Shown: positions 1,641 through 25,652, counted from the stretch's first letter. The stretch is 32,017 nt of DNA from Candidatus Diapherotrites archaeon CG10_big_fil_rev_8_21_14_0_10_31_34 (GCA_002763225.1 PFAI01000057.1:10090-42106); one strand, 5' to 3'. Translations and numbers: made by a program. The notes: a model not told the origin generated them from the letters alone.

Positions 1641-4600
1641 ATGGGCTTAAAAGAGATTTATTCAGCCATTGAAGAAAAGTATTACGGCTTGATGGACGGC
1701 ATAGATAAAACAGGAATCCCAGTATATAAAGTCATAGATTTTTTTGAATCAAAAAACATTCCTTCTTTCCCATTATTTATCATATTTATTCTCCTTATAA
1801 TTGGCGGATCATTTTTCCTTTTAACCGGAGCAGGCGGCTTTCTTGAAACAACAACAGATTTTTCAGTTATAGTTAAATCAGATGGAATAGGAGTAGATGC
1901 AGCAACACTAACTTATGAATTAAAAGGAGAAAAAAAAACTGTTACAACTGATTCAGATGGAAAAGCAAAACTTGAAGTAATAACAGGAAAAGATTTTATT
2001 GTAACTGCAGCAAAAGAAGGATTCAAAGAATCAAAAGCAACATTTAATTCTTCAAAAGACACAACAGGATTAATGGTTTTAATTTCAAGTTTATTACAGC
2101 CAATTAGAGTCCAGTTACTGGGAAAAGGAAATGAATTATTAAGCAAAAATATTACTGTAAATTTTACTTGCACAGAAAACAATGAATGGAATGAAAGAAT
2201 AACTGTTTCAACAGGAAGCGCAGAACTAAGTGATGTTCCGGCTGACTGCGGAACAATTTTAGCTGAACCAGCAGGAATGCAATGCGATGAATGCAATTTT
2301 AGAGCTGACGGTTCATTAATTAAAATTTATTTAGATGAAGTTGAAACAGAAACAGGAACAATTTCTTTTACAATAGAAGATTCAACAGGAAATTTATTGG
2401 ATGGAATTGAAGTATTAGTTATTCCTGCCGGAACCACTATAGCAGAAAACTCCTGCACAACATATAATGGAATGTGCAATGCTGAAGTTCCTTTTGGAGA
2501 ATATTATGTCAGGGCAACAGATTATTCAGGAAAAATGAAGGACTTTGATTCCAAAGGAAAAACAAATAATATTATAATTAATTCAAACAACCAAAATATT
2601 GAATTTAATACTATTACATTAGAAGAAGGAGCAATAGGAGAAATAAAACTAAGAGTAAAAGATTCAGATGGAAAAGCAATAGAAAATGCTTTAGTTAAAT
2701 TATTCAAAGACGGAACAGAAACAAGAGAACAAAGAACTACTTCTTCAGGAGAAGCAGTAATAAAAGTTGCAGAACAAATAAATTACACTATAACAATAAC
2801 TCATCCGGATTATTTGAATTCAGGTTCAAAAACTGTTTCACCTAAAACAGATTTTTATGAAATAATTTTAGAGCAGGCAACAGCATCAAATAAAAGAGCA
2901 ATAAGTGTTTCAGTTGTAGATGAAAAAGGAGAACCAGTTGAAAACACTAAATTGTTTTTGAAGGACGCAGATACACTAAATATTGTTGGAGACGAAAAAA
3001 TAACCGGCTTTGACGGAAAAGCAGTTTTTGACAGAGTAGCTGAAGGAGAATATATTGTCAGAGCAGAAAAAAGAGGGTTTGAAGGAAAAGACTCAAAAAG
3101 AATTGAAGTAAAAGAAAAAGAACCACAAGAAGTTACAATAGCTTTAGATATAGGTGAAGGAACACTTGAAGTAACTGTAGTGGATAAAGAAAGACAGCCA
3201 ATTCAGTCAGCAACAGTTAAAGTAAAAGATTTTTATTCAAACCAAGAGTATGCAGTTTATTCAACTGACCAGGAAGGCAAAAAAAGTTTTACTATTAGGG
3301 CAGACAAAAAAGTTTTTTTGGAAGTAAGCGAATCAAGCCACTCAAATTATATTAGTGCACCAATCCAAATGTTTGACGGAACCGAAGAAAAAACAATTAT
3401 ATTAGAAGACGAAATTAGTGTATTCCAGGTTAAATTAGATTCACTTGAATTAGAAGGACAAGCATTAGAAGATGAAACAGTTAATCAGGGAAAAACATAC
3501 AAAGCAGTATTCAAAGTAATGATTCCAAGAGGAACAGTTTCAACTGAAGCAGGAACCCATATTAGAACAGGAGCAGACACAAAAAACCAAAACAATACAA
3601 TGGAAAAAGATGATCTTTATATTAAAAGTGTCAGCGCAGCAAACGCAAAAATAATTAAAGGAACAACATTTAATCCAAGCACAGGAGAAGGAATAGATAA
3701 TTCTCATTTAACTTCAGGAAACGCTAAATGGGCAAACATAATATTCAATAATGTAAAAGAAGCAGCATATGAAATAATTGCAGTAATTCAAGTAAGAGAA
3801 ACAGTAAGCGGAACAGACATGGAATTAGCTTACAGAGGATGGGTAATTGAAGGAGGATACCAAAGAGACCCGTTTGACTCAGAATTACAGGAAGCAGAAA
3901 ACACTGGAATAAAACAAGGATTATATGCTGAAGCAAGACACGAGCCATTAAGAATTGGGGCATCAAGTTTGTGTTCAGAAAACTTTTGCACAAGTTTTAC
4001 TGCAAGAGATTTAGCTAATGCAACAAGAACAAATATAGTTGATTCATTTCCGGCAGAAATTTCATCTAATTATGAATTAGAATTTAATATAATCAGCATA
4101 AGCGAAAAAGCTTATTCTAACAGCGAATTAGTAATAGAAGGAAAAGGACTGAAATTAAATTCATATGAAATTGAAGGCGACAAAAAAAATGCTTCAGACA
4201 AAATAGTTATTCCGATTGGAAGCATTTCAAAAGGGCAAAAAATGTCAGGCAAAATAAATTTCACCACTAAAAGCGAGGGAACAAACAGAATTGATTTCAG
4301 CTTGTTTGGCGAGAGTTTAAACTTAGGAAAAGAAAAAATATTGTTTAAGCCAATCAGAGCAGAAGTGGCTTTAGCAAAAACAATGAATATAATTACTACT
4401 CCAAAAAATTTGGTTCCTTTTATCCAAAACAATTTACTGGTTAAATTAACTGATGAAGAAGAAAATGATTTAGCTGAAACAACAATAAAAATAGAAAAAG
4501 ACAATGAAACTGTTTCAATTGGAAAAACTGATTCAAAAGGAATTTATGCTTTTAGTTTTGAAGCATTAAACGCAGGAACAGAAATAAAAATTACTGCAGA

Positions 4601-7600
4601 AAAAGCAGGATTTAATCTAGCAGAAAAAATAATTAATATAAGTGAAAACATTGTTTCTTTTGTTCCAACAGAAATCAGTGAAAGCTTTAACGCAAAAAAA
4701 TATTCAGTACCGGTTACAAGAGATATTATAGTCAAAAACATCACTGAAATGCCTTTAACACTTCTTGATGTGGAATTAACTGATTCATTCAAGGGATTAA
4801 TTGAAACAAAAATTGAAAGCTATAATGAAGAACTGCTTGCCGGAGAACAAGGGCAAATATTAATTGATTTAGGTTTAACAGAAAAAGGAAGAAAAGTAAC
4901 TCAGCTTACTTCAGTTACAGGAGAAATAATAATTATATTTGAAGACCCTGAAACAGAAAAACAATGGACTGCAAGTGTTCCACTAAATATTACAATTGGT
5001 TTAGGAGGAGAAGTAGATTACACTGACTGCTTTTCAATTGCTCCAATTGAATGGAACATATTAACCCAAAACAAAACAAAAGAACTCAAATTAGTTTTAA
5101 ATAATTCTTGTACTGTAGACGGAGAAAATATTGCATTAAAAAACATTAAAGCAAAAGTAGTCTGGAAAGAAAATGCAATAGGAGACTTTGACTTAACTTC
5201 AACAATTGAAGGAACAAACTCAATTACCTTAAAAAACACTTACCAGATTTTAGCTGAAGAATTCAATCCAACTTCAGGAGAAGAAGAAAATTTAGGGTTA
5301 GTATTCCTTCCGGATGACATTCCAACAGGAAGCGGAACAGCAACAGTTTACTTGGAAGCAGTTAACCCGACAGAAAACGGAGAACAATTATTAAAACAAA
5401 AAATTGAAGTAAATGTTCAGATAAGCGATTTAACTGAATGCCTGAGAATTACCCCAACAAACAACCAGCTAAGAATTCAAATGAATTATTATAACCAAGG
5501 ATGGGGTTATAACAGCCAGTATTTTGGATATGATCCTACTGCTTCACAAGGAAGCGTTTTCAATAACAGCAATGTTGTTTCAGTTGGAGATTACAGGAGC
5601 CAGCAATGGCCTGCAACCTATAATTACATGGGCCAGTACACTAATCCACAGGCATATAATTCAGCATTAAATTATTCATGGAATTTTAATTCTTCAGGAA
5701 CCGCTTCAATTGAAATACAGAATAACTGCCCTTCACAGGTTCAAATTGAATTAGATCCTGCAGCAGAAATAAGTGTTTCTGACTCAACCATTATGCTGGA
5801 AGAAGGAGGAAGCAAAACAATTGAAGTAACTCCTTCAATGTTTATTGGGCAATATAAATTGGTTATAAAAGCAAAGTACAAGCAGTCAGATGAATCAGCT
5901 TCAGAAGTAGCAAGATACAATGTTTTGGTTGAATCAGAATTCATGAAAAATTACTATGACTGCATTACATTAAGCCCGACAACTTTCACTTTCAATGACA
6001 TTATAGCAAAACCAGTTGAAGGAATAATCTGGAATACCTGTTATGACCAGGGAGTAATATTAAGCCAGAACTCTATTCCATCAAGTTTGGATGGAACAGC
6101 AACATACACAAGCAACCAATATAATACGCTTTCAAATTCAACGCTTTATGCAGGCACCCAGGTTCAGACTGCACAAAACCAGAAAAAACTTGAAAGCTCT
6201 GGAATAATTAAATCAATCCAGATTTATCCAATAAGCAATAAACCTGGTGTAGACGGAAAAATCACTCAGGAACTAAGATTCAGGTTATGGAAAAATCTGG
6301 AGTACACGCCAAAAGACATTAAACTTCCTGATGACACAAATCCATTAGTTGAATTAGCTAATTTAAGGATTAGGTTAAGCGGACTGTATTACAAGGTTGA
6401 AGCAGAAGAAAGGCTTCCAATAACATTTTATAACACATCAGGATTACAGGAAACCCTTCCATTTGACATAATCATTGAAGATTTATGGGCATTAGCAGGA
6501 CAAGATATAATTGACTTTGGAAATGCAAATATTACCCACCAGCAATGCATTATGCAATTAAATTACACTGACAAAGCAAAAGTTGGGGGAACAAACCAAA
6601 GATGCTTTGAAAACGAAATATTCCAAAACGGAATACTGGATGTTGACGCACAAAAAGTAATAAAGAAAAAACAAGAAGCAAACGGGGGAAAAGATTATTG
6701 CGGTGACCCAGACAGAATTGCAGGAATAATTAACAACAGAATTGAATTAGACTCTGGAATAGTATTGCTTTTCAATATATATAACGGAGACAATATTAAA
6801 CTGACAATAGATAAAACTAATGCAACATGCAATCCAAAAAACATTTCAGGAACACTTTATGCAGAGCTTTCAAGAAGCAATCCTGCAACCACTAAAACAG
6901 TTTCAATTCCATACAAGTTATGCATTGACTTAAAAGGACTGCCTTTATGCACTGAAAAACCTTTGACTACTCCTGAAAAAGAATGCAAAGACAAAGCAGA
7001 GGATGAAACAAAAATAATAAGTGAAAGAATAGATGAAATATTAAAAGGAACAAAAGACAGGCAAACAAAAATTGATGAAATAATTGACGTTTTAAAAGAA
7101 GCCTGTTCAGATTTAACTGGAGAAGAACTCAAAAACATTGCAGAAAAAATGGTTGATGAAACTCCAACAACAGAAATAACAACATGCTCTGAAGGAGGAG
7201 TAACAGGAACAGGAGCTTATGAAAAATACTGTTTTAACACAATTAAATTAGACTGGAGCTGGGATTCAATTGGCATAAAAGAATGCGATTCAGAAGAAAC
7301 TTTCTGTGATTCCTCTCAGCTAACAATTGAATTAGCAAAAAAAGCAGCAAAAATAAATGAACTGGGAATAATAGAAATAGACCAGTTATGCAATGGTTAT
7401 TGTGGAGAAGACGTAAAGAATTCAGCGAATTTATTCAGGTTTTTGATAAACCAGACAAGAGTAAAAGATGAAATAACAGGAGCCACACAAGTATTTTTCA
7501 TTGACAATGATTACTCTATTATTGCAGGAACAAAATTCAGTGAAAAAGAATTAACAGAAGAGCTAAGGAAAACCGGATTAATTGCAGGCTGGTTAGAAAG

Positions 7601-9173
7601 CAGTTTAACCGGAAACGCAAAAACAGTAACTGATTTAGTTGATGACATAATAAAAGAAATGGAATCAAACAAAAACATAGACCTGAATTCAGTAGTAGGA
7701 GAAATTGATTTAGACAAAATTGATACAGGAATATTAGGCGCAGGAGAGCTGGAGAAAATGCTTGGAGCAGACAGAATTGAAACAGGAGCAAACAAATATT
7801 TTGTTACATTTAATGAATACAAAGAATTCAGAAACAAGCTAAAAGCATGCATTACAGCAAATCCTAATGCAATAGAATGCCCGATAGAAAAAGTAAAAAA
7901 TAAATCATCAGGAACAACAAATACAATTATAGTTAATCTTGATATGATGAAAGAATTACAGCAAAACATTGAATTCAAAGTAGGAATAAGAAATGTTAAA
8001 GAAATTTCAGAAGAAGATAAAATAACAATTATGCAAAAAGGAAAAGTAAGAGTAAAAGAAAAACTAAAACAATTTGGATATAACACATTACTAGAATTTT
8101 ACAAAGAAAACATTGAATTCACTGCCTACTTAAAAAAAGACGGTTTTGGTTCAGGGTTTAATTCAGACTTCTATAACGCATACTTAAATGAAGCAAAAGC
8201 AGATGAAGGAAAAATACTGGAAGAATTCAAATCAGGAACAGCATGGAAATTCAAAACAAAAAACAACTCAATCGAAACAGGAAGCCACAAAGTATTATTA
8301 GCCTATGACTGGTTTGCTAATAAAAACACTGAAGTGACAATCACATTAGAAGACAAAATGGAAAAACTTCATCCAGAATGCCAAAACAATTATTTATTTA
8401 ACATTCCGTTTGACGGAAAAATAGGATATGAAGACAATAAAAGAGAAGGTTATGGAACAAAATATGGAACAGATAATTCAGTTAACGAAATTTATCTGAA
8501 TACAAAAATTGCATTAAAAGATGATTTAACAAATGGAATTAGCTCTTATAACGCAGAAAAATCAAATAAATTTGGAGACAGCAGAAGCGGAACAATACTG
8601 GAAATCAATGAAGACAAAACATTTAATTTTACTCCATCAAAAGCAATTGGATTAAAAGCAGACCTTTCTTCAAGCGGAAGCAAAGGAGTATTCTATGATT
8701 TAATGCATGGACAAACACAGGTAATTGGAATAAAAGAAGAAACAGGATTAAGCTATTTGTTTAACTGGACTGCAGGACAAGATAATAAACAAAAAGAAAG
8801 CCAGTTAAACAAAGCAGACCAGACATGCACTCAGGAAAGATTTGGAATAATCTTTGAAGCAAATGCAAAAGAAATCCAAAAAGTATTAAGCTTTATTCCA
8901 GTGGAATGGGGCTATAATTTCAAAAGGCAATGCAGTAATGGAATTGATTCAATGACCGGATATGCATTTGATGAAAACGGAAAAGCAGAAAAAACAATCA
9001 TTCCGGCAAACGGAACTTTTACTTCACAAGACATGTATGGGGACACAGCAAAAAACACAAGCCTGCAGAAATGGATTGAAGACATTAAAACAGGAAATGT
9101 TTGTGTTACTACAACCACAAAAGAATTCAAGCTTGAATGGAATAAACAAAAATTAATGGCGGAGCTAAGCTAA
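1641..9173 (+). CDS. Giant membrane-anchored surface protein, paralog 1 (2510 aa): conserved N-terminal leader, one TM anchor, tandem CarboxypepD_reg-like beta-sandwich repeats, Cys-marked central region, conserved C-terminal module
   Basis: An uninterrupted 7.5-kb ORF with ATG at 1641, preceded by gaggggaaggt (1626-1636, SD-like). The N-terminus is MGLKEIYSAIEEKYY...IPSF, followed by a hydrophobic helix (about nt 1764-1835). About six ~80-aa repeats span roughly nt 1857-3410, for example ISVSVVDEKGEPVENTKLFLKD...GKAVFDRVAEGEYIVRAEKRGF, which is typical of carboxypeptidase regulatory-like/Ig-like folds. Landmarks shared with the other two giants include LCSENFC, GGEVD..C and KLDWSW...FCDSSQ. 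N-glycosylation sequons are abundant. Confidence 0.9.
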   Translation: MGLKEIYSAIEEKYYGLMDGIDKTGIPVYKVIDFFESKNIPSFPLFIIFILLIIGGSFFLLTGAGGFLETTTDFSVIVKSDGIGVDAATLTYELKGEKKTVTTDSDGKAKLEVITGKDFIVTAAKEGFKESKATFNSSKDTTGLMVLISSLLQPIRVQLLGKGNELLSKNITVNFTCTENNEWNERITVSTGSAELSDVPADCGTILAEPAGMQCDECNFRADGSLIKIYLDEVETETGTISFTIEDSTGNLLDGIEVLVIPAGTTIAENSCTTYNGMCNAEVPFGEYYVRATDYSGKMKDFDSKGKTNNIIINSNNQNIEFNTITLEEGAIGEIKLRVKDSDGKAIENALVKLFKDGTETREQRTTSSGEAVIKVAEQINYTITITHPDYLNSGSKTVSPKTDFYEIILEQATASNKRAISVSVVDEKGEPVENTKLFLKDADTLNIVGDEKITGFDGKAVFDRVAEGEYIVRAEKRGFEGKDSKRIEVKEKEPQEVTIALDIGEGTLEVTVVDKERQPIQSATVKVKDFYSNQEYAVYSTDQEGKKSFTIRADKKVFLEVSESSHSNYISAPIQMFDGTEEKTIILEDEISVFQVKLDSLELEGQALEDETVNQGKTYKAVFKVMIPRGTVSTEAGTHIRTGADTKNQNNTMEKDDLYIKSVSAANAKIIKGTTFNPSTGEGIDNSHLTSGNAKWANIIFNNVKEAAYEIIAVIQVRETVSGTDMELAYRGWVIEGGYQRDPFDSELQEAENTGIKQGLYAEARHEPLRIGASSLCSENFCTSFTARDLANATRTNIVDSFPAEISSNYELEFNIISISEKAYSNSELVIEGKGLKLNSYEIEGDKKNASDKIVIPIGSISKGQKMSGKINFTTKSEGTNRIDFSLFGESLNLGKEKILFKPIRAEVALAKTMNIITTPKNLVPFIQNNLLVKLTDEEENDLAETTIKIEKDNETVSIGKTDSKGIYAFSFEALNAGTEIKITAEKAGFNLAEKIINISENIVSFVPTEISESFNAKKYSVPVTRDIIVKNITEMPLTLLDVELTDSFKGLIETKIESYNEELLAGEQGQILIDLGLTEKGRKVTQLTSVTGEIIIIFEDPETEKQWTASVPLNITIGLGGEVDYTDCFSIAPIEWNILTQNKTKELKLVLNNSCTVDGENIALKNIKAKVVWKENAIGDFDLTSTIEGTNSITLKNTYQILAEEFNPTSGEEENLGLVFLPDDIPTGSGTATVYLEAVNPTENGEQLLKQKIEVNVQISDLTECLRITPTNNQLRIQMNYYNQGWGYNSQYFGYDPTASQGSVFNNSNVVSVGDYRSQQWPATYNYMGQYTNPQAYNSALNYSWNFNSSGTASIEIQNNCPSQVQIELDPAAEISVSDSTIMLEEGGSKTIEVTPSMFIGQYKLVIKAKYKQSDESASEVARYNVLVESEFMKNYYDCITLSPTTFTFNDIIAKPVEGIIWNTCYDQGVILSQNSIPSSLDGTATYTSNQYNTLSNSTLYAGTQVQTAQNQKKLESSGIIKSIQIYPISNKPGVDGKITQELRFRLWKNLEYTPKDIKLPDDTNPLVELANLRIRLSGLYYKVEAEERLPITFYNTSGLQETLPFDIIIEDLWALAGQDIIDFGNANITHQQCIMQLNYTDKAKVGGTNQRCFENEIFQNGILDVDAQKVIKKKQEANGGKDYCGDPDRIAGIINNRIELDSGIVLLFNIYNGDNIKLTIDKTNATCNPKNISGTLYAELSRSNPATTKTVSIPYKLCIDLKGLPLCTEKPLTTPEKECKDKAEDETKIISERIDEILKGTKDRQTKIDEIIDVLKEACSDLTGEELKNIAEKMVDETPTTEITTCSEGGVTGTGAYEKYCFNTIKLDWSWDSIGIKECDSEETFCDSSQLTIELAKKAAKINELGIIEIDQLCNGYCGEDVKNSANLFRFLINQTRVKDEITGATQVFFIDNDYSIIAGTKFSEKELTEELRKTGLIAGWLESSLTGNAKTVTDLVDDIIKEMESNKNIDLNSVVGEIDLDKIDTGILGAGELEKMLGADRIETGANKYFVTFNEYKEFRNKLKACITANPNAIECPIEKVKNKSSGTTNTIIVNLDMMKELQQNIEFKVGIRNVKEISEEDKITIMQKGKVRVKEKLKQFGYNTLLEFYKENIEFTAYLKKDGFGSGFNSDFYNAYLNEAKADEGKILEEFKSGTAWKFKTKNNSIETGSHKVLLAYDWFANKNTEVTITLEDKMEKLHPECQNNYLFNIPFDGKIGYEDNKREGYGTKYGTDNSVNEIYLNTKIALKDDLTNGISSYNAEKSNKFGDSRSGTILEINEDKTFNFTPSKAIGLKADLSSSGSKGVFYDLMHGQTQVIGIKEETGLSYLFNWTAGQDNKQKESQLNKADQTCTQERFGIIFEANAKEIQKVLSFIPVEWGYNFKRQCSNGIDSMTGYAFDENGKAEKTIIPANGTFTSQDMYGDTAKNTSLQKWIEDIKTGNVCVTTTTKEFKLEWNKQKLMAELS

Positions 9174-9183: not shown

Positions 9184-12100
9184 ATGGGGTTAAAAGATTT
9201 GTATTATGGAATGGAAGACAAATACTATGAAGTAATAGAAAAAATTAGTGAGACAATTCCAATAAACAAATTAATTGACCCGATTGATAAAATAGTTCCT
9301 TCTTTCATGGTTTTTTCTGGCTTAATAATTTTCCTGATTTTGATTGCATTAGCTTTAATGTATTCAGGAAACCTGGGAGAAGAAAAAAATTTGAGTTTTA
9401 AACTGATTGATGAAAATAAAAAAGCAATCGGAAACACTGAAATAAAAGTTTTTTTTAATGACAAAAATATAACAGTTAAAACAGATGCATTTGGGGGAAC
9501 CTCAAAAGACAAAATTGTTGTTCCATTAAATTCAACTGTAAGTTATTCAATTGACGCACAAGGGTTTCTGAAAACAAACGATCAATTCAAGTTCACTGAA
9601 GAAAAAACATATGAAATCACTTTAAAAAAAGAAACAGTTCAGGGAAAAGAAATTGAAAGAACAATCAGATTATATGACAGTTCAAACTCAACTGAATTAA
9701 TTTCAAACAGAACTTATACAATATCTTTTTCCTGCAGTAATTCAGCTGCAACCCCCCCTTCAAATATAACTATTTCAAACGGAAAAGGAACAGTATTTGA
9801 ACCAGCAAACTGCGGAATATTAACTGCAAATATTGAAGGAGACCATTCAGAATCAAAACACATTGCATTAAGCGATTTAATCAATTCAATTTACTTGGAT
9901 TCACTTGTAAGCAATTATAATTTAACAGTAAATGTAGAAAACACAGAAGGAGAAGCATTAGATGACATTAAAATAAAAATTTACAGGGTTTATGATGATA
10001 ACCCTAACCCCGTTTTTGCTGACAGTTTAATTACTTCTTATGGCAGAGCAGAATTTGAATTAGAAGCAGGCGAATATGAAATCAAAGCATTTGATGAAAT
10101 CAATGGATTGTATTACGAAAAAAGCAAAAACTTATATAATTTTTCTTCAAACCAAAGTGTCAGTCTTTCAATGGAAAGAATAGGGCCGTTAGGAGGAAAA
10201 ATTTCAATTACAGCAATAGACAAAGACACTGAATTTGAACTGCCTGAAACAAAAGTAACTTTATATGATTCAGACGGAATAATAGCTGAAGAAAGAACAA
10301 CAGATGAAACAGGAACAGTTGAATTCAATTTAAGAAACAAAGATGGATTATATGAAGCAGTATTAGACAATGAATTATATTTAGTTCAAAGAGTAACAGA
10401 ATTAGAAACAGAAAAAAGTTATACAATTGAATTAACTAAGTTTACGGGACAGAATTCAGGAGCATTAAAAGTCAGGGCAATAACTGTTTCAGGAGAAAAA
10501 GTAAAGCCAGTAAGAAATGCAATGATTGCATTATATTCAGTTGAAGATGAAGAAATATTTTTAACTGGTTTAAGCGAAAAAATAACTGATGAAAACGGCA
10601 GTGCAAAATTCCAGAGAATAGAAAACGGGAAATACAAGATTTTTGCTTACAAAGGAACTTCTTCGGGTTGGAGCGACGAAATACAATATGACAAAAGAAA
10701 TGCAAGTGAAATAGAATTAACTGCAACAATGATTATTCCAGACGGATTTATTGATTTGCAGATAGTTGACCAGGAAAACAATTCAATTCCTTTTGCTACA
10801 GTAACTTTTTTTGAAACAGGTGCAGTAAAAGAATTAAATTCATATAAAACTGATTCAGACGGAAACATTAGTTTTACAACCAAAGCAGACAAAAAAGTTT
10901 TCTTTAAAGTTAGTGCACCGGATTTCATGGATTACTATAGTTTAAGTTATCCGATTTTTGGAAACGAAACAGTTTTTAAAACAATTAAAATGATTCCGGA
11001 AAAAACAATGGACAAACCAGAAATAAATTTAACTGGATTATTTACTGACGGACAAGAATTAAGTGAAGCAAGTTCATTAGAAAGAGGACAAGAATACACT
11101 GCAAAACTTCAGTTAATTATTCCAAAAAACAAGAATTATGATTCAGCTGGAATTCATTTCAGAGTAGGAAACGATGTTTATATGGAAAACGATTTGCTGT
11201 TAATTAAAACAATTAATGCAGCAAACGCAGTAACAGAAAAATACACTATGTTTGATTCAGGCAATTTAAATGACTCAAAAAAAAGCCAGACCCAAGGAGA
11301 CGCAAAATGGTTTAACTCTTACTGGTTTGTTCCAAAACCAGGAGTATATAATATTGAAACAGTAATTTTTGTAAAAGAAAATGCTTTAGTCGGACAAGAA
11401 CTGAATTTAAAGTTCAGGGCATATGGAAAAACAGGCGGAAAATATGACAGAGACCCTGAAGACGTTGAAGTAAGCTATTCAGAAGAATTAAATGCCGCAA
11501 CAAAAACAAAAACTTATACAATTGGAACAAATGTTTTGTGTTCAGAAAACTTTTGTTTTACTGCAAGAATTAAAGACAAAGAAGAAGACTTAATTGAAAG
11601 TGTTACAAACTCATCTTATTCAACAAAGATTTTACGGGAATATGAATTATGGTTTGACATAATGAACAATAATGAAACAAGAAAGCATTATGAAGCAAGA
11701 ATCCAGTTAAGCAATGAAAACGAAATGCTGAATTTTACTAATTATGAAATAAAGAATGCAGATGCTTTAACAAAAAAAGGTTTTGCTGATGCAACAGAAA
11801 CAAAATGGATTGAATTAGGAGACTTTGATCCAAACACTCATGTAACAGGAACAGTTAATTTTATTACACAAAAAGCAGAACCAGGAAGCATTTTAATCCA
11901 GATTGTTTCAAGCCAGGAAATAGTGTTTGAAAAAGACATTTCTTTAGATGTTAAAGCCCCAAAAACTTTTTCAATGGAAATTAAACCAGAAATAATTCCT
12001 GCTATAACACCAAACACAGTTGAATTCAATGTAACTGATGAAGAAACAGGAATTGAAGTAGAAAACGCTGAAATAAAAGTTTTAGACAGATTTAATGACT

Positions 12101-16108: not shown

Positions 16109-19100
16109 TTGGGTTTAAAAGATATTTATAATTCAGCTGAAGACAAATACTATGAAATAATTGACTCAATAGATAAAACCATTCCAATAACAAAAATAAC
16201 TGATGCAATTGATTCAGTTGTTCCTTCTTTTGCTTTATTGCTGGTTTTGATTGTTTTAGTTCTAGGATTTTTATTATGGCCAGTAATTTTTCCTGCAGAA
16301 ACAATTTCATACAAAATAACAGTTGAAGATGAAAACGGAAATTTTTTAGAAGGAATAAACGCAAGCATTACTCCGGCTGAAACAGGAAAAGGAGATTTAA
16401 TGCAGGGAATATTTACAACAAATGAAAAAGGGGAAATAAATTCAACTGCAAGAAAAGGAACAGAAATAATAATTGAAATAAAAAATTCAGGGTATGAAGA
16501 AGAAAAAAGAAATGCAATAATAGAAGAACAAAATCAAAAAATTATTTTTAAATTAAAAAAACTTGTTTCAGAAGAGCCGGCTGAAGCAACACTAAGGTTT
16601 ACTGATTCAGGAGGCCAAAGAATTACAGGAAAAGAAATTACAGTTAAATTAAGCTGTAGAAATTCATCTGTTGTTCCTTCTCCTTCAATTGTACGGGATT
16701 CAGATAAAGACGGAGAAATAATTGTTCCAATTCCAAAAGACTGCGATAAATTAATGGTTGACTCAGTTGAAGTGCTGGGATTTGAAGAATGGAACGGAAT
16801 GGTTAACGGAGCAGTATTATCCATTAAATTAGATTCAATTTCAGAGGAAACAGACAATGAATTAACCGGAGACTTAAGAGTTGTAGTGCAGGATTCAGAT
16901 GGAAATCCATTAGACGGAATAAAAGTAAATTTAATGAAAGGCAATTCAACAATAAAACAAGAATACAGTGATTCAGGAGAAGTGCAGTTTATTGGAGTAT
17001 TAATCGGAGAATATGATTTAGTTTTACAGGATTCAGAAAACAATTATGCAATAAAAAAAGTTTATTCAGTTGAAATCTATAATCAAACTGTAACAAAAGA
17101 AATAGTTGAAATGAAGTTAACCCAAAAAGGAACACTAAAAGTAACAGTAAAAGATATTGATACAGGAACAAGAATAGAAAACGCAGAAGTATTAATTACA
17201 GGTAATGCAGGAGAAATACTTGGAGAAGAAAACACAGGAGAAGACGGGTTAACAGTAGAGTTTGCCTTGTTTTCTGACGAAGAAATAACTATTATTGTAA
17301 GACACGAAGATTACCTGCCTGAAACAACAGTAATAGAAGAGATTTCAAAAGATGGAACAGAAATAACGATTGAACTGGAAAAAATCACTTCAGCTAACAG
17401 CGGAAAACTAAATATAACTTTAGTTGACGAAGAAAACAAAAAAGTAGCTAATGCAAGAGTAATGATTTTAAATGAAGACAAAAGCTTTGCAACACAATAC
17501 CCTGAAAAGTTTTCTGATGCAAAAGGAGATGTAAATTATTCAGGAATAAAAGAAGGAAGTTATATTGTAAGGGCAGAAAAATTTCCTGCTTCAGCTCAAT
17601 CAGATTTATTTGAAATAAATTTAACTGAAATAACTTCAATGACAGTAAAAATGACAATAGGAAATGCAAAAATCCATTTAAAAACAATTGATAATGAAGG
17701 AAATCCAATTCCATTTACCAGAGTAAAAGTTAAAAGTCTGGATAAAGAAAACGAATATCCTTTAGATGAAAAAGGAGAAACAGAATTATTAATTAAAGCA
17801 GACAAAAGAGTTTTCTTTGAATTTTATGACCCAGAAGACAATTATGCAAAATATACTACAAAAGAATATCAGTTGTTTCCAGAAGAAATTAAGCCGGAAG
17901 GATATGAAATTGTCGGAGTAATGAGCGAACAAATTGCAGGACAAGGATTATGGGTTGAACTAAAAGGAGTTTATTCAGATGGAATAAAACAAGATGTTTT
18001 AGTCGGCGGAAGACCTTATATTGCAGTATTTGAATTATTTGTTCCAACAGATGAAAGCTTTGATTCAGCAGGAATTCATGTAAGAGTAGGAGAAGACTCT
18101 CATGTTTTTATGGAAAACGACATTGTTTCAATTAGAAAAATTAATGCACCAGACGCAACAAAAATAAAAGGAAAAACATGGAATCCTGTTAAAGGAGAAG
18201 ACATTGATTTGGATGTAGATAATTCGGCTTCATCTAATGCAGAAGGAAAATGGGCTAATATTGTCTGGGATAAAGTCCAGCCAGGAAGATATCAAGCAGA
18301 AGTTGAAATAAAAATAAATGAACAGGCAACTGATTCAGATGAAATTTCAATTAAATACAGGGCATGGGGAAAAGGACAAGGATATTATTATTTCCCTGCA
18401 GACAATGACCTTGGAGCAACAAAACAAATGCTTTATGCAGAAACACTTGAAACAGTATTTAATGCAGCAGAAGAAATTCCAATCTGCGAAGAAAATAATT
18501 TATGTATGTCAGGACAAATACTACTTGATTTAGAAGAAGAACCTTTTATTACACAAAAAAAACTGCCGTTTAAAACAAAAACATTTGGAACATATGAGTA
18601 TGAATTCAAAATAGCAAACAATTCACTGTCAACTTATGATGAACCAGAAATATGGATTAAATTAATTGACCCAACAGAAAACAACGGGCAGTATGTTGAA
18701 ACAAAAAAAGCAGAAATAGCTTATTATGAAATTAAAAGAGCTGACGGAACAATCATAAAAAACACTGAATTAAATGACACTTCAACTCAGGGAATTGAAC
18801 TAGGAAAATTCATGGACCAGTCAGTAATAGAAGGAACAATTGGAATAAAAACAAAAAATGCCGGAAGCATTTATGCAAATGTTTCAATAATAGAAAAAAC
18901 AAATAAAGGCTCAAATGAAATTTTTAATAATGAACAAAAAACACAAATTAAAATAAGTTCAGAAAAAGAATTAGTTATTACAGCAAAACCAGAGTTTGTT
19001 CCTGCATGGGTTGAAACTCCAATTGAAATCACAGTAAAAGATGATGAAGGAATTGAAGTGGAAAACGCTTTAATTACTTTTAGTGTAATTGAAAGTGAAA

Positions 19101-22100
19101 ACACTGAAACACTAATTGATGCAAAATATTCAAGCAAATTCGGCAAAGCGGAATTTAATATAATGCAATGGGACCCAAAAACAACAATAAAATTTACTGC
19201 AAAAAAGTTTGGCTATGAAACAGGAATAAAAGAAATAATTTTATCAGAAGAAGTATTTGAATTACTTCCTGAAAACATTAATGAAACTTTAAGCAAAAGA
19301 GATAATCCTTTAGTAACAAAAGAAATTACAATAATTAATTTGCTTGAAACAGATTTGAAAATATATGGAATTAATTTAAAAAACGAAGTCGGGTATTTTG
19401 GGGCATTTATTGACACTGAAAGAATGCAGGGAAAATTTGATGGATTTAAAGGGCAGACAGTTGAAGCTTTCCCTCAAGAATTTAATGCAGAAATATTTGA
19501 AGCAAAACTGCAAAATGGATTACAGGATGATTATACTGGAACTGCAAAAGGGATAATGACTGTTTCTTTGATTAACGAAGAATTTGATGCAGTATATGAT
19601 AAAGAAATTGAAGTTAATTTAAGTTTAGGAATAGGAGAAGAAATAGATAATGCTTCTTGCTTGGAAATAGTTTCAGGAGAAACACAGTTTTCAAGACAGA
19701 CAACTTCCCAGCCAGTTCAATTAGCTTATACAATAGAAAATACTTGTTCAGATAATACAGGAAAAGGAATCAGAGTAAATAATTTAAAAGCAAGAGTTGA
19801 ATGGGCTTCATCAAAAAAAGGAGAAGTTTCACTGCAAATGAGTATCCCAAGTAGCGGTCAAAAAACTGCTACGCTAAAAACAACTGAATTCACTGAATTT
19901 TTTTCAAATGTTAACGCAAAAGAAGAATTCCAGGCTTTATTGACTTATACTCCAAACACTGAATTGCTTGGAGAAGAAGGAACAGGAGAATTTACTGTGG
20001 TAATTGAAGCAGAACTTGTTACTGCAGATGGAAAACAAGTAATTCAGACTTCACCTTCTTCAATTCAGGGAAAAATCGGTAATGTTGATTTAATTGAATG
20101 CATTGAATTTGATCCAAAACCAAAAATTGGAACAGTAATTGAATCAGATTCAGATGAAACAGAATTCATTATAACAAATAATTGCGGAATGGAAGTAGAC
20201 TTAAGATTTTGTGACGGAGACAACAGATGCAATGGAGGAACAGAAGAAGGAGGAATAATAGTTACTCCAAAAACAATTACTGACCCATTAACTTTAGGAA
20301 CAGGAAACAATAATGCAGACAAAGTCAAAGTTGAAAAAACAAGCATTCCAGGAATTTATGGAATGAAAATAGAAGCAAAAATTTCAGGAGAATCATGGAG
20401 AGAAATTGCTGTATATGATGTTTTAGTTAAACCAAATGACGGGTATTTTAGTTTAGCAGATTACACTATTGCTGTTCCAGAAACAAATGTAAAAGACATA
20501 ATTGAATTAAAAAATGAAAGATTATATGCTGATGTTAAAGTAACTGCAAGCGACTGTGACTGGGAAACTGCTTCAGACACTTGGGGAAGATGGGATGATG
20601 GAATAAAGGGATTTGGAGCAGGCGGAGCTTCAGCTGCAGGAGCTATTGTTGTTACTGCAATACTATCAAAAGCCGTTGCACTTAGTGCTATGACAGGACC
20701 TGTAGGAATCGCAATAATGGTTGGAGTCGCAGTAATTGGAAGTATTATTTGCATTTTTGCCTGCCCTGACCCCTGCGATAATGAAACAACCACAATCTTG
20801 CAGGACAATATAATCAGATTAAGCACCTACAATGACTCATCAGATTTAAATGGAATCAGCTTATCACTTAAAGGAATTGAAGTAGGATGGAATTTTGAAG
20901 ACGCAGTATTAGACTTTATAAATAACGCGCCTCCGGGAAAAGAAACAATTCCATTATACTTTGAAAAAACAACTTCAGATTATGACAATATTAAACCAGC
21001 TTATGGAATACTGACAATAGATGCAATAGAGCATCCCCACAAAGACACTCTTAAAGTGCCAAGAGGAAATTCAAATTTCGGTCCATTTAACCTGCCTGAA
21101 TATTATTCAGGAAGAAAAGCAGTATGGACAACAAATTCAATAAAGAAAAAATTCCATGTAAGGGCAATAACAAAAAGATTTATTGAAGAAATTCCTCCAA
21201 TAAACACAAGCCTTGACTGTGTAAGACCAACAGGAGAAATAGGAGGAATAGGAGAACAAGCTTTACCAAAAGTAAAATTAGACTGGGAATGGAATTCAAT
21301 TGCTTTCAATGAATGCGAACAATCAAATGAAAACTATGTTTACTGCGATTCAACTCAGTTTGCAATAATGCTGAATAAAAGAATACACAAAATAGATGAA
21401 TTCATGAAAGAAAACAATTATGGTTTTGACTGCCCGGAAAACCCAATAGAAAAAGCAGCTAATTCAAACTGGGAAAAAACAAGAATGCATGATGTTGCTG
21501 AAGGAAAAATAGGGATAAACCAAGTGCAGATTAATACAAACAAAGAAACAAACAAAACAACAATTGATGCAGTAATACTAAACAAAAATATTTCTCCAAT
21601 GGAAGCTAAAGTAACAATGAATTTAACTGTTCCAGAAGGAACTGAATATGCAGGAGAAACAGAATGCATAAAAGAAACCGGAATGCTTGGATTAAATTCA
21701 AGCAAAACAGTTTCCTGTGAATTTGTTTTGCCTAAAACAGAAGAAGCATATAAAATTGAAGTAAGGCATGTGCCTCAAAAAATAATTGAGGATCCAATTG
21801 AAAGAGTTAAATATGATTCATTTGCATTTAACATTAATTTCACTTTATTTGAAGAAAAAGAATGCTGGGCAGGAACTTCAACAATAGATACAGCAGGAGT
21901 CTTTCCATTAAACCTTTACCTGAATAAATTAGACCCTCTCTGGGGGGAATACGTCAAACAAGAAATAATTAAATTCCAGGGCAATAATATTTCTACAGAT
22001 GATACAAAAATAATTAATGTAATTGAAAATGTAAAAGAATTAAGTCATTTTAATGTTTATATGATGAAAGATGGTTTTAGCCAAGACTTTAAAGAAGATT

Positions 22101-23302
22101 TTGCAGACTATTATGAAAACGCGTTTTTGGGTTCAGCAACATGGTTTACAGACGGAGATTCAGATACAACAAACAATGAGTTAGCTGAATACTTTAAACA
22201 AGATGGATTGCTTTCATTTAACAGAAAATATTTAAGAGAAGAAAAATATGAATTACCTGAACCAGGATTATACCGGGTTGATATTCAAATAGATTACACT
22301 GGAGACAAATGGAGTTTATTTGATGTAAGCGAAAAACCAAACGCAGAAATCAGAGTTGAATTCACCAGATTAAACACTCCAAATGTTGATTCAATCTTTT
22401 ATTATATGCCGTTTGATGGAAAAGTAGGAGAAGAAAATTTTGCTTACCATAGAATTGGATATGGAGCAGGCTACACTAACTTAAAAGAAGAAAACTTAAA
22501 TGTAAACAATAACACTGTTCTTTCTTCAAGCAATACTTCTAGTGCACCAATACAAGAAATATTAATAGAAAAAAGCAATTCATTAAATGAAATGAATTCA
22601 GATGAAGAAACAAGAGGAAGCATTTTGAATTTAAATTATGACGGAAGCGACATAAAAATGAAGTTTGCTCCTTCAAAAGCAACTCCAGTTGTATTAAGAA
22701 TGTGGCATGAACAAACAAGCTCAACAAATGAATTCACTTATTATTATGGAATGCAGGAAAGTAATTTGCCTGTTTTAGCAGGAGACAAACTTGCGTTTTG
22801 GAGAGGATTAGGGAGATGCAGAGACTTTGAAGGAAAGTTTTTGCAGAATTATAAAAGATGGGATACTCAAACTGGAAGCGAATCACAGAGTTTATATGAA
22901 GTAGCATGGAATAATGCAGTCAAAGGAGGAGACACTTACTTAAAAACAATTTTATACACTCCAGTTGAAAGAAACATTAACTTAAAAGTAGAAGAAGATG
23001 TTTCAGTTAAAAAATCAGCTTTGTTTACTCCAAACGAAAAAAACTCTAAAATAATAGGATTAAACGGAATAACAGAAATGCAATACAATAATGCAAACCA
23101 GCAAAGCAGCAGTTATTTAAAAAACATTAAAAACGTGTTTGATTTAGTTAAACAAGGAAAATTATGTATTTCGCAAAACGATTCTTCATTAAACGTTTAC
23201 TGGAATGAACAAGAATTATACAGAACAAAAGGAGCAGACACAGGGCAAAGCATAAATGATTTAGAAGAATCATTGGTTGCCGGAGACAACTGCATTGAAT
23301 GA
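16109..23302 (+). CDS. Giant membrane-anchored surface protein, paralog 3 (2397 aa), TTG start
   Basis: The start codon at 16109 is TTG, read directly as ttgggtttaaaa. This start is supported because it reproduces the MGLKD leader of paralogs 1 and 2, and by agaggggaa (16095-16103) upstream. It has the same architecture: leader, TM helix, beta-sandwich repeats (about 16300-17880), GEEIDNASC, KLDWEW...YCDSTQ and MPFDGKVG. It also has a strongly hydrophobic Gly/Ala-rich internal double segment at 20609-20764. Confidence 0.9.
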   Translation: MGLKDIYNSAEDKYYEIIDSIDKTIPITKITDAIDSVVPSFALLLVLIVLVLGFLLWPVIFPAETISYKITVEDENGNFLEGINASITPAETGKGDLMQGIFTTNEKGEINSTARKGTEIIIEIKNSGYEEEKRNAIIEEQNQKIIFKLKKLVSEEPAEATLRFTDSGGQRITGKEITVKLSCRNSSVVPSPSIVRDSDKDGEIIVPIPKDCDKLMVDSVEVLGFEEWNGMVNGAVLSIKLDSISEETDNELTGDLRVVVQDSDGNPLDGIKVNLMKGNSTIKQEYSDSGEVQFIGVLIGEYDLVLQDSENNYAIKKVYSVEIYNQTVTKEIVEMKLTQKGTLKVTVKDIDTGTRIENAEVLITGNAGEILGEENTGEDGLTVEFALFSDEEITIIVRHEDYLPETTVIEEISKDGTEITIELEKITSANSGKLNITLVDEENKKVANARVMILNEDKSFATQYPEKFSDAKGDVNYSGIKEGSYIVRAEKFPASAQSDLFEINLTEITSMTVKMTIGNAKIHLKTIDNEGNPIPFTRVKVKSLDKENEYPLDEKGETELLIKADKRVFFEFYDPEDNYAKYTTKEYQLFPEEIKPEGYEIVGVMSEQIAGQGLWVELKGVYSDGIKQDVLVGGRPYIAVFELFVPTDESFDSAGIHVRVGEDSHVFMENDIVSIRKINAPDATKIKGKTWNPVKGEDIDLDVDNSASSNAEGKWANIVWDKVQPGRYQAEVEIKINEQATDSDEISIKYRAWGKGQGYYYFPADNDLGATKQMLYAETLETVFNAAEEIPICEENNLCMSGQILLDLEEEPFITQKKLPFKTKTFGTYEYEFKIANNSLSTYDEPEIWIKLIDPTENNGQYVETKKAEIAYYEIKRADGTIIKNTELNDTSTQGIELGKFMDQSVIEGTIGIKTKNAGSIYANVSIIEKTNKGSNEIFNNEQKTQIKISSEKELVITAKPEFVPAWVETPIEITVKDDEGIEVENALITFSVIESENTETLIDAKYSSKFGKAEFNIMQWDPKTTIKFTAKKFGYETGIKEIILSEEVFELLPENINETLSKRDNPLVTKEITIINLLETDLKIYGINLKNEVGYFGAFIDTERMQGKFDGFKGQTVEAFPQEFNAEIFEAKLQNGLQDDYTGTAKGIMTVSLINEEFDAVYDKEIEVNLSLGIGEEIDNASCLEIVSGETQFSRQTTSQPVQLAYTIENTCSDNTGKGIRVNNLKARVEWASSKKGEVSLQMSIPSSGQKTATLKTTEFTEFFSNVNAKEEFQALLTYTPNTELLGEEGTGEFTVVIEAELVTADGKQVIQTSPSSIQGKIGNVDLIECIEFDPKPKIGTVIESDSDETEFIITNNCGMEVDLRFCDGDNRCNGGTEEGGIIVTPKTITDPLTLGTGNNNADKVKVEKTSIPGIYGMKIEAKISGESWREIAVYDVLVKPNDGYFSLADYTIAVPETNVKDIIELKNERLYADVKVTASDCDWETASDTWGRWDDGIKGFGAGGASAAGAIVVTAILSKAVALSAMTGPVGIAIMVGVAVIGSIICIFACPDPCDNETTTILQDNIIRLSTYNDSSDLNGISLSLKGIEVGWNFEDAVLDFINNAPPGKETIPLYFEKTTSDYDNIKPAYGILTIDAIEHPHKDTLKVPRGNSNFGPFNLPEYYSGRKAVWTTNSIKKKFHVRAITKRFIEEIPPINTSLDCVRPTGEIGGIGEQALPKVKLDWEWNSIAFNECEQSNENYVYCDSTQFAIMLNKRIHKIDEFMKENNYGFDCPENPIEKAANSNWEKTRMHDVAEGKIGINQVQINTNKETNKTTIDAVILNKNISPMEAKVTMNLTVPEGTEYAGETECIKETGMLGLNSSKTVSCEFVLPKTEEAYKIEVRHVPQKIIEDPIERVKYDSFAFNINFTLFEEKECWAGTSTIDTAGVFPLNLYLNKLDPLWGEYVKQEIIKFQGNNISTDDTKIINVIENVKELSHFNVYMMKDGFSQDFKEDFADYYENAFLGSATWFTDGDSDTTNNELAEYFKQDGLLSFNRKYLREEKYELPEPGLYRVDIQIDYTGDKWSLFDVSEKPNAEIRVEFTRLNTPNVDSIFYYMPFDGKVGEENFAYHRIGYGAGYTNLKEENLNVNNNTVLSSSNTSSAPIQEILIEKSNSLNEMNSDEETRGSILNLNYDGSDIKMKFAPSKATPVVLRMWHEQTSSTNEFTYYYGMQESNLPVLAGDKLAFWRGLGRCRDFEGKFLQNYKRWDTQTGSESQSLYEVAWNNAVKGGDTYLKTILYTPVERNINLKVEEDVSVKKSALFTPNEKNSKIIGLNGITEMQYNNANQQSSSYLKNIKNVFDLVKQGKLCISQNDSSLNVYWNEQELYRTKGADTGQSINDLEESLVAGDNCIE
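20609..20764 (+). other. Internal Gly/Ala-rich double hydrophobic segment (predicted TM hairpin or membrane-insertion element) inside giant protein 3
   Basis: The translation is GFGAGGASAAGAIVVTAILSKAVALSAMTGPVGIAIMVGVAVIGSIICIFAC, followed by PDPC. These are two ~20-aa apolar stretches about 1500 aa from the N-terminal anchor. GC content is locally higher because of Gly/Ala codons. Confidence 0.6.
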
Positions 23303-24652: not shown

Positions 24653-24653
24653 A

Positions 24654-25142
24654 ATGCCTTTAAAAACAAGGCAATTACTTTCAAGAACAACCCGATTTAA
24701 AAAAAATCTAATTACTTCAAACAGAAGAAATACCAGGAATTCAGCTAAACCAATTTTTGCCAGACAGGTTAAAAGAAAGATTTCCGAAATTAAAGATTTG
24801 GATTTACACAGCAATATGAAAAGACTTGGAATAACAGCAGAAAAAACGCTTTATGATAAAATTTTATTTCTTGAAAAAATCATTAAAAGAAATCTTAAGG
24901 TAAAAAGTAATTCATTACTCGGCTTTGGAAAAAAAAGAAAATATTATTTTGTTAAAGTGTATTCTCCTGGACAAACAACAAAACTTTTGAGGATAATTAA
25001 CACAGAAACTGTCAGCAAACTCATGGGAATTGAAAGAGAAATAACAACAAAAATACAACAACAAAAAGATAAAGAAAAGAAACAAATAATTGAAGGACTT
25101 CAAGGGCATGGGCCCATTGACATATTTCCTTTTAGTGATTAA
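24654..25142 (+). CDS. Highly basic soluble protein (162 aa), function unknown
   Basis: ATG at 24654 lies 1 nt after the previous stop, with ggaggaat (24641-24648) upstream. The protein is Lys/Arg-rich throughout (RRNTRNSAKPIFARQVKRK, GFGKKRKYYFVKV) and has no hydrophobic segment. I recognise no family. Confidence 0.65.
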   Translation: MPLKTRQLLSRTTRFKKNLITSNRRNTRNSAKPIFARQVKRKISEIKDLDLHSNMKRLGITAEKTLYDKILFLEKIIKRNLKVKSNSLLGFGKKRKYYFVKVYSPGQTTKLLRIINTETVSKLMGIEREITTKIQQQKDKEKKQIIEGLQGHGPIDIFPFSD

Positions 25143-25145
25143 ATT

Positions 25146-25652
25146 ATGAAATTAATTTATGTGCTTATTTTATTAGTGTTTTACTTTTATTTTCATTTTA
25201 AGGGCCCTGTGATAGCTGAATGGGTTATTGGAATATTAATTTTGTTAATGGTTTTAGCAAAACTTTTTTCAGGAATACTTGGAATAGGAAAAGCCGGAGC
25301 AAAAGAATTTACGAGAGACATGGAAACAGACATGATGAATGCAAAAGGAAAAGGACCTTCAAAAGAATTCTTGACTGAAGTAGTCAGAGAAACAGGAAGA
25401 AAGTCAGGCGAATTTTTAGGGGCACCAGAAAGCTATGTGTACAAACAAAAAGATTTAATCGGAAACTTAAGCCAGGGGGCAAAAAACTTTTTTGCAGGAA
25501 TAACTGCATTGTTTGGGGGAAAATATGAAAAGCCTTCACACAAAGAAGAACCCAAACATAATAATCCACCAAAAAAACATGTTGAAGAACATCATGCAGA
25601 AAAAGCTTCAGACAGCCATTCACATGAAGGGCATGGGCACGGCCATCATTAA
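25146..25652 (+). CDS. Membrane protein (168 aa) with two N-terminal TM helices and a His-rich C-terminal tail
   Basis: ATG at 25146 lies 3 nt after the previous stop, with gtgat (25135-25139) upstream. The N-terminus MKLIYVLILLVFYFYF...WVIGILILLMVLAKLF is hydrophobic. The tail HVEEHHAEKASDSHSHEGHGHGHH is encoded by nt 25578-25649. Confidence 0.7.
   Translation: MKLIYVLILLVFYFYFHFKGPVIAEWVIGILILLMVLAKLFSGILGIGKAGAKEFTRDMETDMMNAKGKGPSKEFLTEVVRETGRKSGEFLGAPESYVYKQKDLIGNLSQGAKNFFAGITALFGGKYEKPSHKEEPKHNNPPKKHVEEHHAEKASDSHSHEGHGHGHH

Follow-up and report, generated by a model that had tools for sequence, protein, structure and literature searches.

What is built from three consecutive genes for giant proteins and from the tightly packed run of small membrane-protein genes that follows them? 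The question is raised by a 32,017-nucleotide (nt) stretch of DNA from Candidatus Diapherotrites archaeon CG10_big_fil_rev_8_21_14_0_10_31_34 (GCA_002763225.1, PFAI01000057.1:10090-42106), hereafter the window, in which a first-pass annotation had proposed a single nine-gene unit for adhesion, contact or membrane interaction, starting at position 1641. The window is tentatively read here as containing most of a surface-fibril apparatus specific to the phylum Iainarchaeota (Diapherotrites), with the small proteins as its membrane base; this preferred reading is held at somewhat less than even confidence. The cluster runs for ~34 kb in the order G0 - P618 - G1 - G2 - G3 - s1 - s2 - s3 - s4 - (s5) - s6, where G0 to G3 are giants, P618 is a pilin-like protein and s1 to s6 are the small genes; set against the 1.19-1.24 Mb of related organisms' contigs, it would occupy approximately 3% of the genome. 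No description of this cluster was found in the literature searched.

The three giant genes of the window all lie on the plus strand and encode proteins of 2510 amino acids (aa) (G1, 1641..9173), 2278 aa (G2, 9184..16020) and 2397 aa (G3, 16109..23302); G3, the last giant 5' of the small genes, has a TTG start giving MGLKD. G1 and G2 are separated by a 10-nt spacer bearing AGGTGA, the Shine-Dalgarno (SD) motif that had been pointed out previously. Pairwise BLASTP alignments showed 26-28% identity (E-values from 1e-82 to 1e-98) in three regions: the first ~1300 aa, the last ~400 aa and a short module rich in Cys. The shared anatomy, as seen in G1, consists of a leader, a transmembrane (TM) helix, a beta-sandwich stalk and a C-terminal head. 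The leader of ~40 aa follows the pattern MGLK..Y...EDKYY...D...P.YK..D.. in each protein, a nearly invariant P-S-F stands between it and the one strong TM helix (aa ~41-61), and Cys pairs were found at equivalent positions (~180/210, 785/791 and 1150/1178) as well as in the Cys-rich module and at the C-terminus. Open reading frames (ORFs) and BLASTP thus agree with the first-pass annotation that these are same-strand paralogues sharing a leader, a TM anchor, beta-sandwich arrays, Cys landmarks and a C-terminal module.

Pfam and NCBIfam searches of the giants returned only beta-sandwich repeats of the CarboxypepD_reg, Big_1, SpaA and MG types, mostly in the N-terminal ~1000 aa, in agreement with the earlier statement that nothing beyond generic repeats is recognisable. 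The gathering score of CarboxypepD_reg (PF13620; 32.3 bits) was exceeded by all four giants (G1 108.5, G2 44.2, G3 54.8 and G0 69.1 bits), a membership that holds at the domain level only, with most of the significant matches in the first ~600 aa; there was no significant PF13620 match between aa ~1025 and 2200, nor any Pfam match to tiles of the middle and C-terminal regions of G1-G3 at E<=1. A single-sequence search of PDB sequences with G1 gave no match, while a profile of the giant family matched prealbumin-like domains only, within its first ~500 positions, namely those of NOMO2 (9c7v_B, E=1e-7) and of chain 8qox_B (E=8e-5), a 'conserved membrane protein' which we take to be Sulfolobus SlaB. 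The stalk is therefore of the same tandem beta-sandwich kind as PF13620 proteins and NOMO of the BOS complex, but the similarity is limited to the N-terminal half of the giants, being most significant in the first ~500-600 aa, and NOMO-type rods have no counterpart to the leader, the conserved mid-region or the C-terminal head. Identity as a bacterial alpha-2-macroglobulin or thioester protein was also considered and rejected: bMG3 scored below its gathering threshold, no C.EQ motif is present in G0-G3, and the single MG4 match, in G1 (33.9 bits against a threshold of 24.7), contained no individually significant stretch.

The G2 head (14455..16017, +; aa ~1758-2278) combines a Cys-rich module with a helical bundle and a beta-rich domain. 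Outside the repeats, no other part of the giant family is as well conserved; the motifs of the head include C..G...G.TG..ALPKIKL.W.W......CD..N..Y.YCDATQF and FNAYLI.DGYS.DF, and it had no Pfam or PDB sequence match. An AlphaFold2 (AF2) model of G2 aa 1150-2278 had a mean predicted local distance difference test (pLDDT) score of 78, with confidence mostly >85 in the head. It opens with three beta-sandwich domains and a long helix; after ~140 disordered residues come further beta-sandwiches, and then the small Cys-rich module and the helical bundle lead to the beta-rich terminal domain, which ends in a helix. Foldseek matches to this C-terminal half were all tandem Ig/ASH/PapD-like arrays, which swamp any signal from the head domain. 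On Pfam, the PDB profile search and Foldseek with the G2 C-terminal half, the giants were found to lie outside any characterised S-layer or adhesin family. Separately, the precomputed Pfam list gives a CAP/PR-1 domain (PF00188), together with a faint match of cupredoxin type, for a G1-type giant of 3046 aa from another Iainarchaeota metagenome-assembled genome (MAG; L064, 11557-20697), so that extra modules can evidently be acquired by the heads of these giants.

G3 differs from G1 and G2 in having an internal Gly/Ala-rich hydrophobic hairpin (20606..20773, +; aa ~1500-1555; GFGAGGASAAGAIVVTAILSKAVALSAMTGPVGIAIMVGVAVIGSIICIFAC), at the position of the region that is disordered in the G2 model. 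A similar hydrophobic segment was observed at aa ~1410-1580 in the homologues P0015, P0018, P0020 and P0022-P0026 and at aa ~1745 in P0019, and six of these nine hairpin-bearing proteins were best matches to G3. The hairpin could serve as an additional membrane anchor, or it could be inserted into a different membrane.

The six small genes, all on the plus strand and with coordinates taken from the gene calls of public assemblies on identical contigs, begin after a 101-nt gap behind G3 and are separated from one another by 1 to 3 nt, or by a 1-nt overlap in the case of s1/s2; in spacing and in character they are as first described, with hydrophobic multi-TM proteins encoded by s1-s4 and s6 (the last His-tailed) and a basic protein encoded by s5. 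The polytopic membrane protein s1 (23404-23751, 115 aa, KGNLGTGP loop) has orthologues throughout the phylum, and s1, s2 (23751-24089, 112 aa, RGYLGSGP loop) and s3 (24091-24345, 84 aa, KGNLGSPK loop) are mutually paralogous. The best conserved of the small proteins is s3, with 56-63% identity to its orthologues in three other loci (L009, L013 and L014). A separate family is formed by s4 (24347-24652, 101 aa), also polytopic and with a Gly-rich C-terminal tail; it was tried as a fourth paralogue and rejected, the hhalign probability against the s1-s3 family being 1%. In s6 (25146-25652, 168 aa) two TM helices at the N-terminus are followed by a charged tail that ends rich in His (HSHEGHGHGHH); homologues of s6 were detected in 22 of 47 loci, and the His-rich tail is not conserved. 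Neither Pfam nor NCBIfam recognised a family in any small protein. When 1.84 billion proteins were searched exhaustively by HMMER with the profile of s1-s3, only 146 representative clusters were retrieved, the named members of which were all Diapherotrites or unclassified archaeon MAGs.

The remaining small gene, s5 (24654-25142), encodes a basic soluble protein of 162 aa (38 K+R against 14 D+E) which matched no family, PADLOC system or phage. It is confined to six contigs of the same organism (L001-L006), absent from all 47 species-representative loci, and missing even from L016, whose d2 protein (the HerA-like product of a gene just beyond the small genes) is 80% identical. Since s5 occurs in this species only, it is not a conserved partner, contrary to the role it had been given in the first-pass annotation.

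The beginning of the array also had to be moved. On the 44.9-kb source contig (L012), G1 is preceded by a fourth giant, G0 (2464 aa), and by the 618-aa P618, so the cluster extends upstream of position 1641; the C-terminal 503 aa of P618 are encoded in the window (3..1514, +) and its start lies upstream of it. Full-length P618 (L012 8018-9874; 618-622 aa) begins with MDKKG followed by FTLFTALVSFVLILL, a class III (prepilin-type) signal peptide of canonical form, in that the charged N-terminus is short, [KR][GA] stands at -2/-1 and a hydrophobic stretch of ~20 residues follows (MDKKG followed by FTLFTALVSFVLILLTAMIV). The P618 family comprises 38 members of 470-620 aa, all labelled Diapherotrites/Iainarchaeota, with the N-terminal pattern [KR][GA]F[TN]LFTALV and with residues F6, L8, F9, T10, A11 and L12 invariant in 36 sequences. 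In the AF2 model (pLDDT 86, predicted template modelling score 0.83) a 73-residue N-terminal helix (residues 3-75) leads into an alpha/beta globule, for which no pilin or other match was found with Foldseek in PDB and BFVD at E<=1e-3; a profile search of PDB sequences was likewise empty. A G1-type giant lies 3' of the pilin-like gene in every context examined. Within this gene, window positions 1163-1205 hold a 12-nt in-frame tandem repeat (3.6 copies) encoding TTQY; a single TTQY is present in the otherwise near-identical L012, and the protein P0135 has 622 aa against 618 aa. The repeat is a copy-number polymorphism in a predicted surface protein.

Conservation was surveyed by scanning one genome per GTDB species with d2 (26347..27861, +; 504 aa), and the 47 loci obtained were mapped with custom hidden Markov models (HMMs). 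All 47 were of the Iainarchaeota type, Ca. Iainarchaeum andersonii among them. Homologues of the giants (45, of 2100-3100 aa), of the small proteins (88) and of P618 were all found in MAGs labelled Diapherotrites, Iainarchaeum or, loosely, 'Micrarchaeota', and the organism of the window itself was found in several metagenomes. A near-universal order was observed, namely giant - s1 - s2 - s3 - s4 - (s6) - d1(-) - d2 - d5(-) - polB, in which d1 and d5 are coiled-coil proteins and (-) denotes the minus strand. Where at least 2.5 kb of upstream sequence was available (33 loci), s-genes were present next to d1-d2 in 31 loci and the complete s1-s4 set in 29. The neighbourhood suggested by the first-pass annotation, in which MGLK-leader giants stand directly upstream of KGNLG-type small proteins, was recovered in 24 of the 27 loci with enough upstream sequence to be informative, the C-terminal module of a giant ending tens to hundreds of nt from s1; the same arrangement was also seen on independent metagenome contigs. 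The three exceptions are the most divergent loci. In L060-L062 the giant C-terminal HMM had no match upstream of s1, but L060 and L062 have genes for other large secreted proteins and for a protein with a class III signal directly 5' of s1.

The individual giants also keep their places. Orthologues of G1 follow the pilin-like gene in L008, L009 and L011, the same position as in the window, and orthologues of G3 lie directly 5' of s1 in L009, L013, L014 and L015. Positional orthologues of G1, G2 and G3 are far more alike than are the paralogues within one genome, from which it follows that these are ancient, non-redundant paralogues.

Several variations on this gene order were recorded. In L008 (9405-9884) and L011 (17377-17850) an extra polytopic membrane protein of 157-159 aa, absent from the window, is encoded between the G1 and G2 orthologues. 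Some genomes have genes for large secreted proteins (613-1407 aa) inserted within the s-block or immediately behind it: L024 (3928-8148) has them between s2 and s3, L039 (7001-9367) and L040 (7497-9335) between s6 and d1. A contig deposited as 'Chloroflexi bacterium' (L047, JAFCCG010000009.1) holds a complete giant - s1-s4 - s6 - d1 - d2 - d5 - polB block and is probably mis-binned. Proteins of only ~1650-1800 aa bearing the leader were found on the metagenome contigs L107, L108, L116, L123, L126 and L132-L134; these short ORFs had no match to the C-terminal head, although in L132 and L133 the head is matched by another ORF located downstream, and the genes stand alone in L107, L108, L116 and L123, for which 10-kb flanks were available. 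They suggest a wider family built on the same N-terminal leader.

On the preferred reading, the leader of the giants would be cytoplasmic, and the giants would be N-in, membrane-anchored fibrils some tens of nm long with their heads at the cell periphery. The giant paralogues and P618 would form one hetero-oligomeric surface structure instead of a set of redundant adhesins. A membrane-embedded base, made up of s1-s4 and s6, may dock or assemble the giants by way of the TM helix and the cytoplasmic leader of each. The conserved K/R-G-x-L-G-S/T-G/P loop of s1-s3 is predicted to face the cytoplasm, and the apparatus would probably serve contact with, or attachment to, other cells or surfaces. The weakest step concerns d1, d2 and d5, which may represent a non-catalytic cytoplasmic ring and a coiled-coil scaffold of the same apparatus. 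A bolder version, which we regard as doubtful, would make of the locus a previously undescribed three-layer apparatus spanning the envelope (the s1-s4/s6 base, the inactivated HerA-like ring with its coiled coils, and four to five giants with the novel-fold pilin-like protein), a new machine for cell-cell contact or bridging unrelated to type IV pili, type IV secretion systems or the SPEARE proteins of Nanohaloarchaeota; in such a machine the hairpin of the last giant could insert into the membrane of a partner cell.

In the conserved protein d1 (25654..26232, -), an acidic linker joins a small helical domain at the N-terminus to a coiled coil; its gene stands beside d2 in 42 of the 47 loci, and only generic coiled-coil matches were obtained in PDB. 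The d2 family profile matched Sulfolobus solfataricus HerA (4d2i) at E=2.2e-5 over 316 positions, other HerA entries being weak; PF01935 (DUF87/HerA) was matched by two of four d2 members, with a best E-value of 1e-3, and a single-sequence PDB search gave one insignificant match (E=0.049). The alignment covers the central ATPase domain (~316 residues), including an FDxxxE motif and the region around Walker B, but the Walker A motif (GxxGxGKS) is not conserved: GSGKS of HerA aligns to t-e-k-e-r-k in a segment of the form G[SG][TE].K[DE]R[KN]H, R, N or Q occupies the position of the lysine, and the motif that aligns with the HerA 'QR' has disappeared. With its nucleotide-binding site degenerate in this way, d2 is HerA-like and probably not catalytic. 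It differs from HerA also in its surroundings, there being no NurA, Mre11 or Rad50 partner while coiled-coil and small membrane proteins flank it. A conserved coiled-coil protein is encoded by d5 (29009..29497, -; motifs DIKALNSSILVLSQKM.Y.VRNEKILGRN and ELKYVI..INPLEF), for which generic coiled-coil matches only, no informative PDB match and no family were found; the gene lies between d2 and polB in 40 of the 47 loci.

In approximately 40 of the 47 species representatives the order d1(-) - d2 - d5(-) continues into a family B DNA polymerase gene (polB) and an M24 peptidase gene (window 25654-31984; L013-L062), and because the trio is syntenic with these two in most genomes its link to the giants is uncertain. 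A defence system or mobile element was considered as well and rejected: PADLOC returned no meaningful match for d1, d2, d5, s5 or s6, and s5 resembles no phage protein. Between d2 and d5 the window contains a nucleotidyltransferase/HEPN gene pair (27962-28997; Pfam NTP_transf_2 and HEPN in public calls), of which the nucleotidyltransferase gene (27962-28561) matched PADLOC PDC-M05A at E=1e-11; in most other loci d2 and d5 are adjacent, and the pair probably represents an insertion of toxin-antitoxin type. The window contained no Rfam family and no tRNA.

Several observations weigh against a single apparatus with a role in contact. The gene s1 has no SD, an AT-rich TATA-like box lies ~25-35 nt 5' of it and a T5 run follows the G3 stop codon, so that the small genes may form a transcription unit of their own. 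The elements of the cluster are also found apart: d1-d2 is kept with no s-block or giants nearby in L038 and L056, s3-s4-d1-d2 lies downstream of ribosomal protein genes with no giant in L041, and L010 contains a solitary member of the giant family. As the conserved synteny takes in polB and the M24 peptidase, which are surely unrelated, adjacency alone is weak evidence of function. No binding or enzymatic fold can be recognised in the head or in P618, so that the case for 'attachment' is one of analogy with other Ig-repeat surface proteins, and conservation throughout the phylum at a fixed position fits a core envelope structure as well as it fits the episymbiont or host-attachment framing of the first-pass annotation. 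Of the nine-gene unit as originally drawn, the conserved neighbourhood stands, while its boundaries do not, with G0 and P618 added upstream, d1, d2 and d5 flanking it downstream and s5 not conserved.

The explanation that best survives beside the preferred one, and which we nevertheless consider rather unlikely, is that two unrelated units lie side by side: the giants and P618 as surface proteins, and the s-proteins with d1, d2 and d5 as parts of another machine at the membrane, which might for instance handle chromosomes or the division site, or serve transport near polB, and whose place next to the giants would reflect no more than the general conservation of gene order in this phylum. The promoter-like features before s1 are what would be expected of such an arrangement, as are synteny reaching through d1-d2-d5-polB-M24 in 40 of 47 loci, the giant-free block in L041, and the lack of a giant C-terminal HMM match before s1 in L060-L062; HerA/FtsK-family proteins, moreover, reportedly often work at membranes. 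Against this, the giant that ends so close to s1 in 24 of 27 loci is of the G3 type, and even L060 and L062 retain large secreted and class-III-signal proteins at that place. The supposed second unit is not itself firmly joined, since s6 and d1 are separated by insertions in L039 and L040, d1-d2 occurs without an s-block in L038 and L056, and d1 is on the opposite strand.

A second alternative, judged unlikely, is a type IV filament-like fibre, in which P618 and possibly the giants would be cut by a prepilin peptidase at the cytoplasmic face (KG/F and PS/F, respectively) and drawn out of the membrane, by type IV pilus machinery encoded elsewhere, into a pilus-like fibre with giant subunits. 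The textbook class III signal and long N-terminal helix of P618 speak for it, as does the position of P-S-F in the giants, directly before a hydrophobic helix that often starts with F-x-L-F and so resembles the FTLF of P618. Archaeal class III signals are recognised by [KRDE][GA] at -2/-1 (the FlaFind motif). The giants break this rule, with [IVF]-P-[SFT]-[FML] at the corresponding site (P-S-F in most), and their 40-aa conserved leader would be atypical of such signals. Type IV pilus genes have been reported in Ca. Iainarchaeum andersonii and AR10 (PMC8561730), which is in keeping with machinery encoded elsewhere. In the neighbourhood itself, a motif scan covering 10 kb around ~140 loci detected no ORF of the PilB/FlaI type, and the precomputed Pfam lists of the called genes contained no prepilin peptidase (A24), PilB/FlaI ATPase (T2SSE) or PilC/FlaJ (T2SSF) family. 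Large class-III-signal proteins in archaeal type IV pilus loci have been proposed to be tip adhesins or minor pilins (PMC4858521). P618 resembles the archaeal class III proteins (type IV pilins, archaellins and bindosome-type proteins) in its N-terminus, its hydrophobic stretch of ~20 residues and its long helix, but its globule matches no solved pilin structure, genes for an assembly ATPase, a platform protein or a peptidase are missing from its surroundings, and its constant partners are giants instead of small pilins.

It is less probable again, and in our view very unlikely, that the locus encodes a housekeeping envelope scaffold in which the giants form an S-layer or wall-substitute canopy, the small proteins are its membrane anchors, and contact between cells plays no part. 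Occurrence of the cluster throughout the phylum at a fixed chromosomal position would suit such a scaffold, as would the resemblance of a giant beta-sandwich domain to 8qox_B. Archaeal S-layers are often built from Ig-like domains (10.1101/2024.05.28.596244), but the same preprint predicts another protein, of 1039 aa (A0A2G9N319), as the S-layer protein of Iainarchaeota. The giants show generic beta-sandwich similarity only and no sequence similarity to S-layer protein families, and four to five divergent paralogues (2200-2900 aa) that are all separately anchored by a TM helix at the N-terminus are unlike the known lattice-forming S-layer proteins; identity of the giants as S-layer proteins was accordingly rejected. 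Conjugation-like or Ced/Ted-like translocation, in which a HerA/VirB4-like d2 would drive DNA or protein through an s-protein channel with the giants as contact device, is highly improbable: d2 does have a HerA/FtsK-type fold and several small proteins of 2-4 TM helices adjoin it, but with its Walker A lysine replaced and its 'QR'-aligned motif lost it probably lacks ATPase activity. The locus has neither a large polytopic protein resembling VirB6 or CedA nor a relaxase or coupling protein, and the small proteins match nothing in Pfam.

The preferred reading of a fibril apparatus on a base of small membrane proteins may also be set beside known giant surface proteins of small-genome organisms. 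SPEARE proteins, to which the giants had been likened, carry serine protease, laminin-G/adhesion and intracellular type III restriction domains and usually have their TM helix near the C-terminus (PMC6642349). Both groups are very large, mostly extracytoplasmic and membrane-anchored, belong to small-genome DPANN lineages and, in several copies, take up a few per cent of the genome. The analogy nevertheless extends to size only, and membership was rejected, as none of the defining domains was found in the giants (Pfam at E<=0.01, and at E<=1 for the middle and C-terminal tiles of G1-G3); in addition, the giants have an N-terminal TM helix preceded by ~40 residues, dedicated small membrane proteins and a pilin-like partner. 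Vampirococcus lugosii, an episymbiotic bacterium of the candidate phyla radiation, likewise combines a small genome with giant predicted surface proteins, its longest proteins having 1392-4163 aa and adhesion-type domains and being accompanied by type IV pilus genes (PMC8080830), but it belongs to another domain of life, there is no sequence relationship, and it has not been described as having a conserved operon for small membrane proteins of this dedicated kind.

The Iainarchaeota are uncultured. A cluster that takes up approximately 3% of a ~1.2 Mb genome, that has kept its order throughout the phylum and whose families are almost all without relatives elsewhere is the most obvious candidate for the structure that determines the surface and the cell interactions of this lineage. 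It offers defined targets for metaproteomics, cryo-electron tomography and multimer modelling, among them the leader-TM segments and the P-S-F site of the giants, the s1-s3 loop, the G3 hairpin and the novel-fold pilin-like protein. It also indicates that the 'giant surface proteins' of DPANN archaea need not be interchangeable adhesins, but can be non-redundant subunits of ancient origin that have membrane partners of their own.

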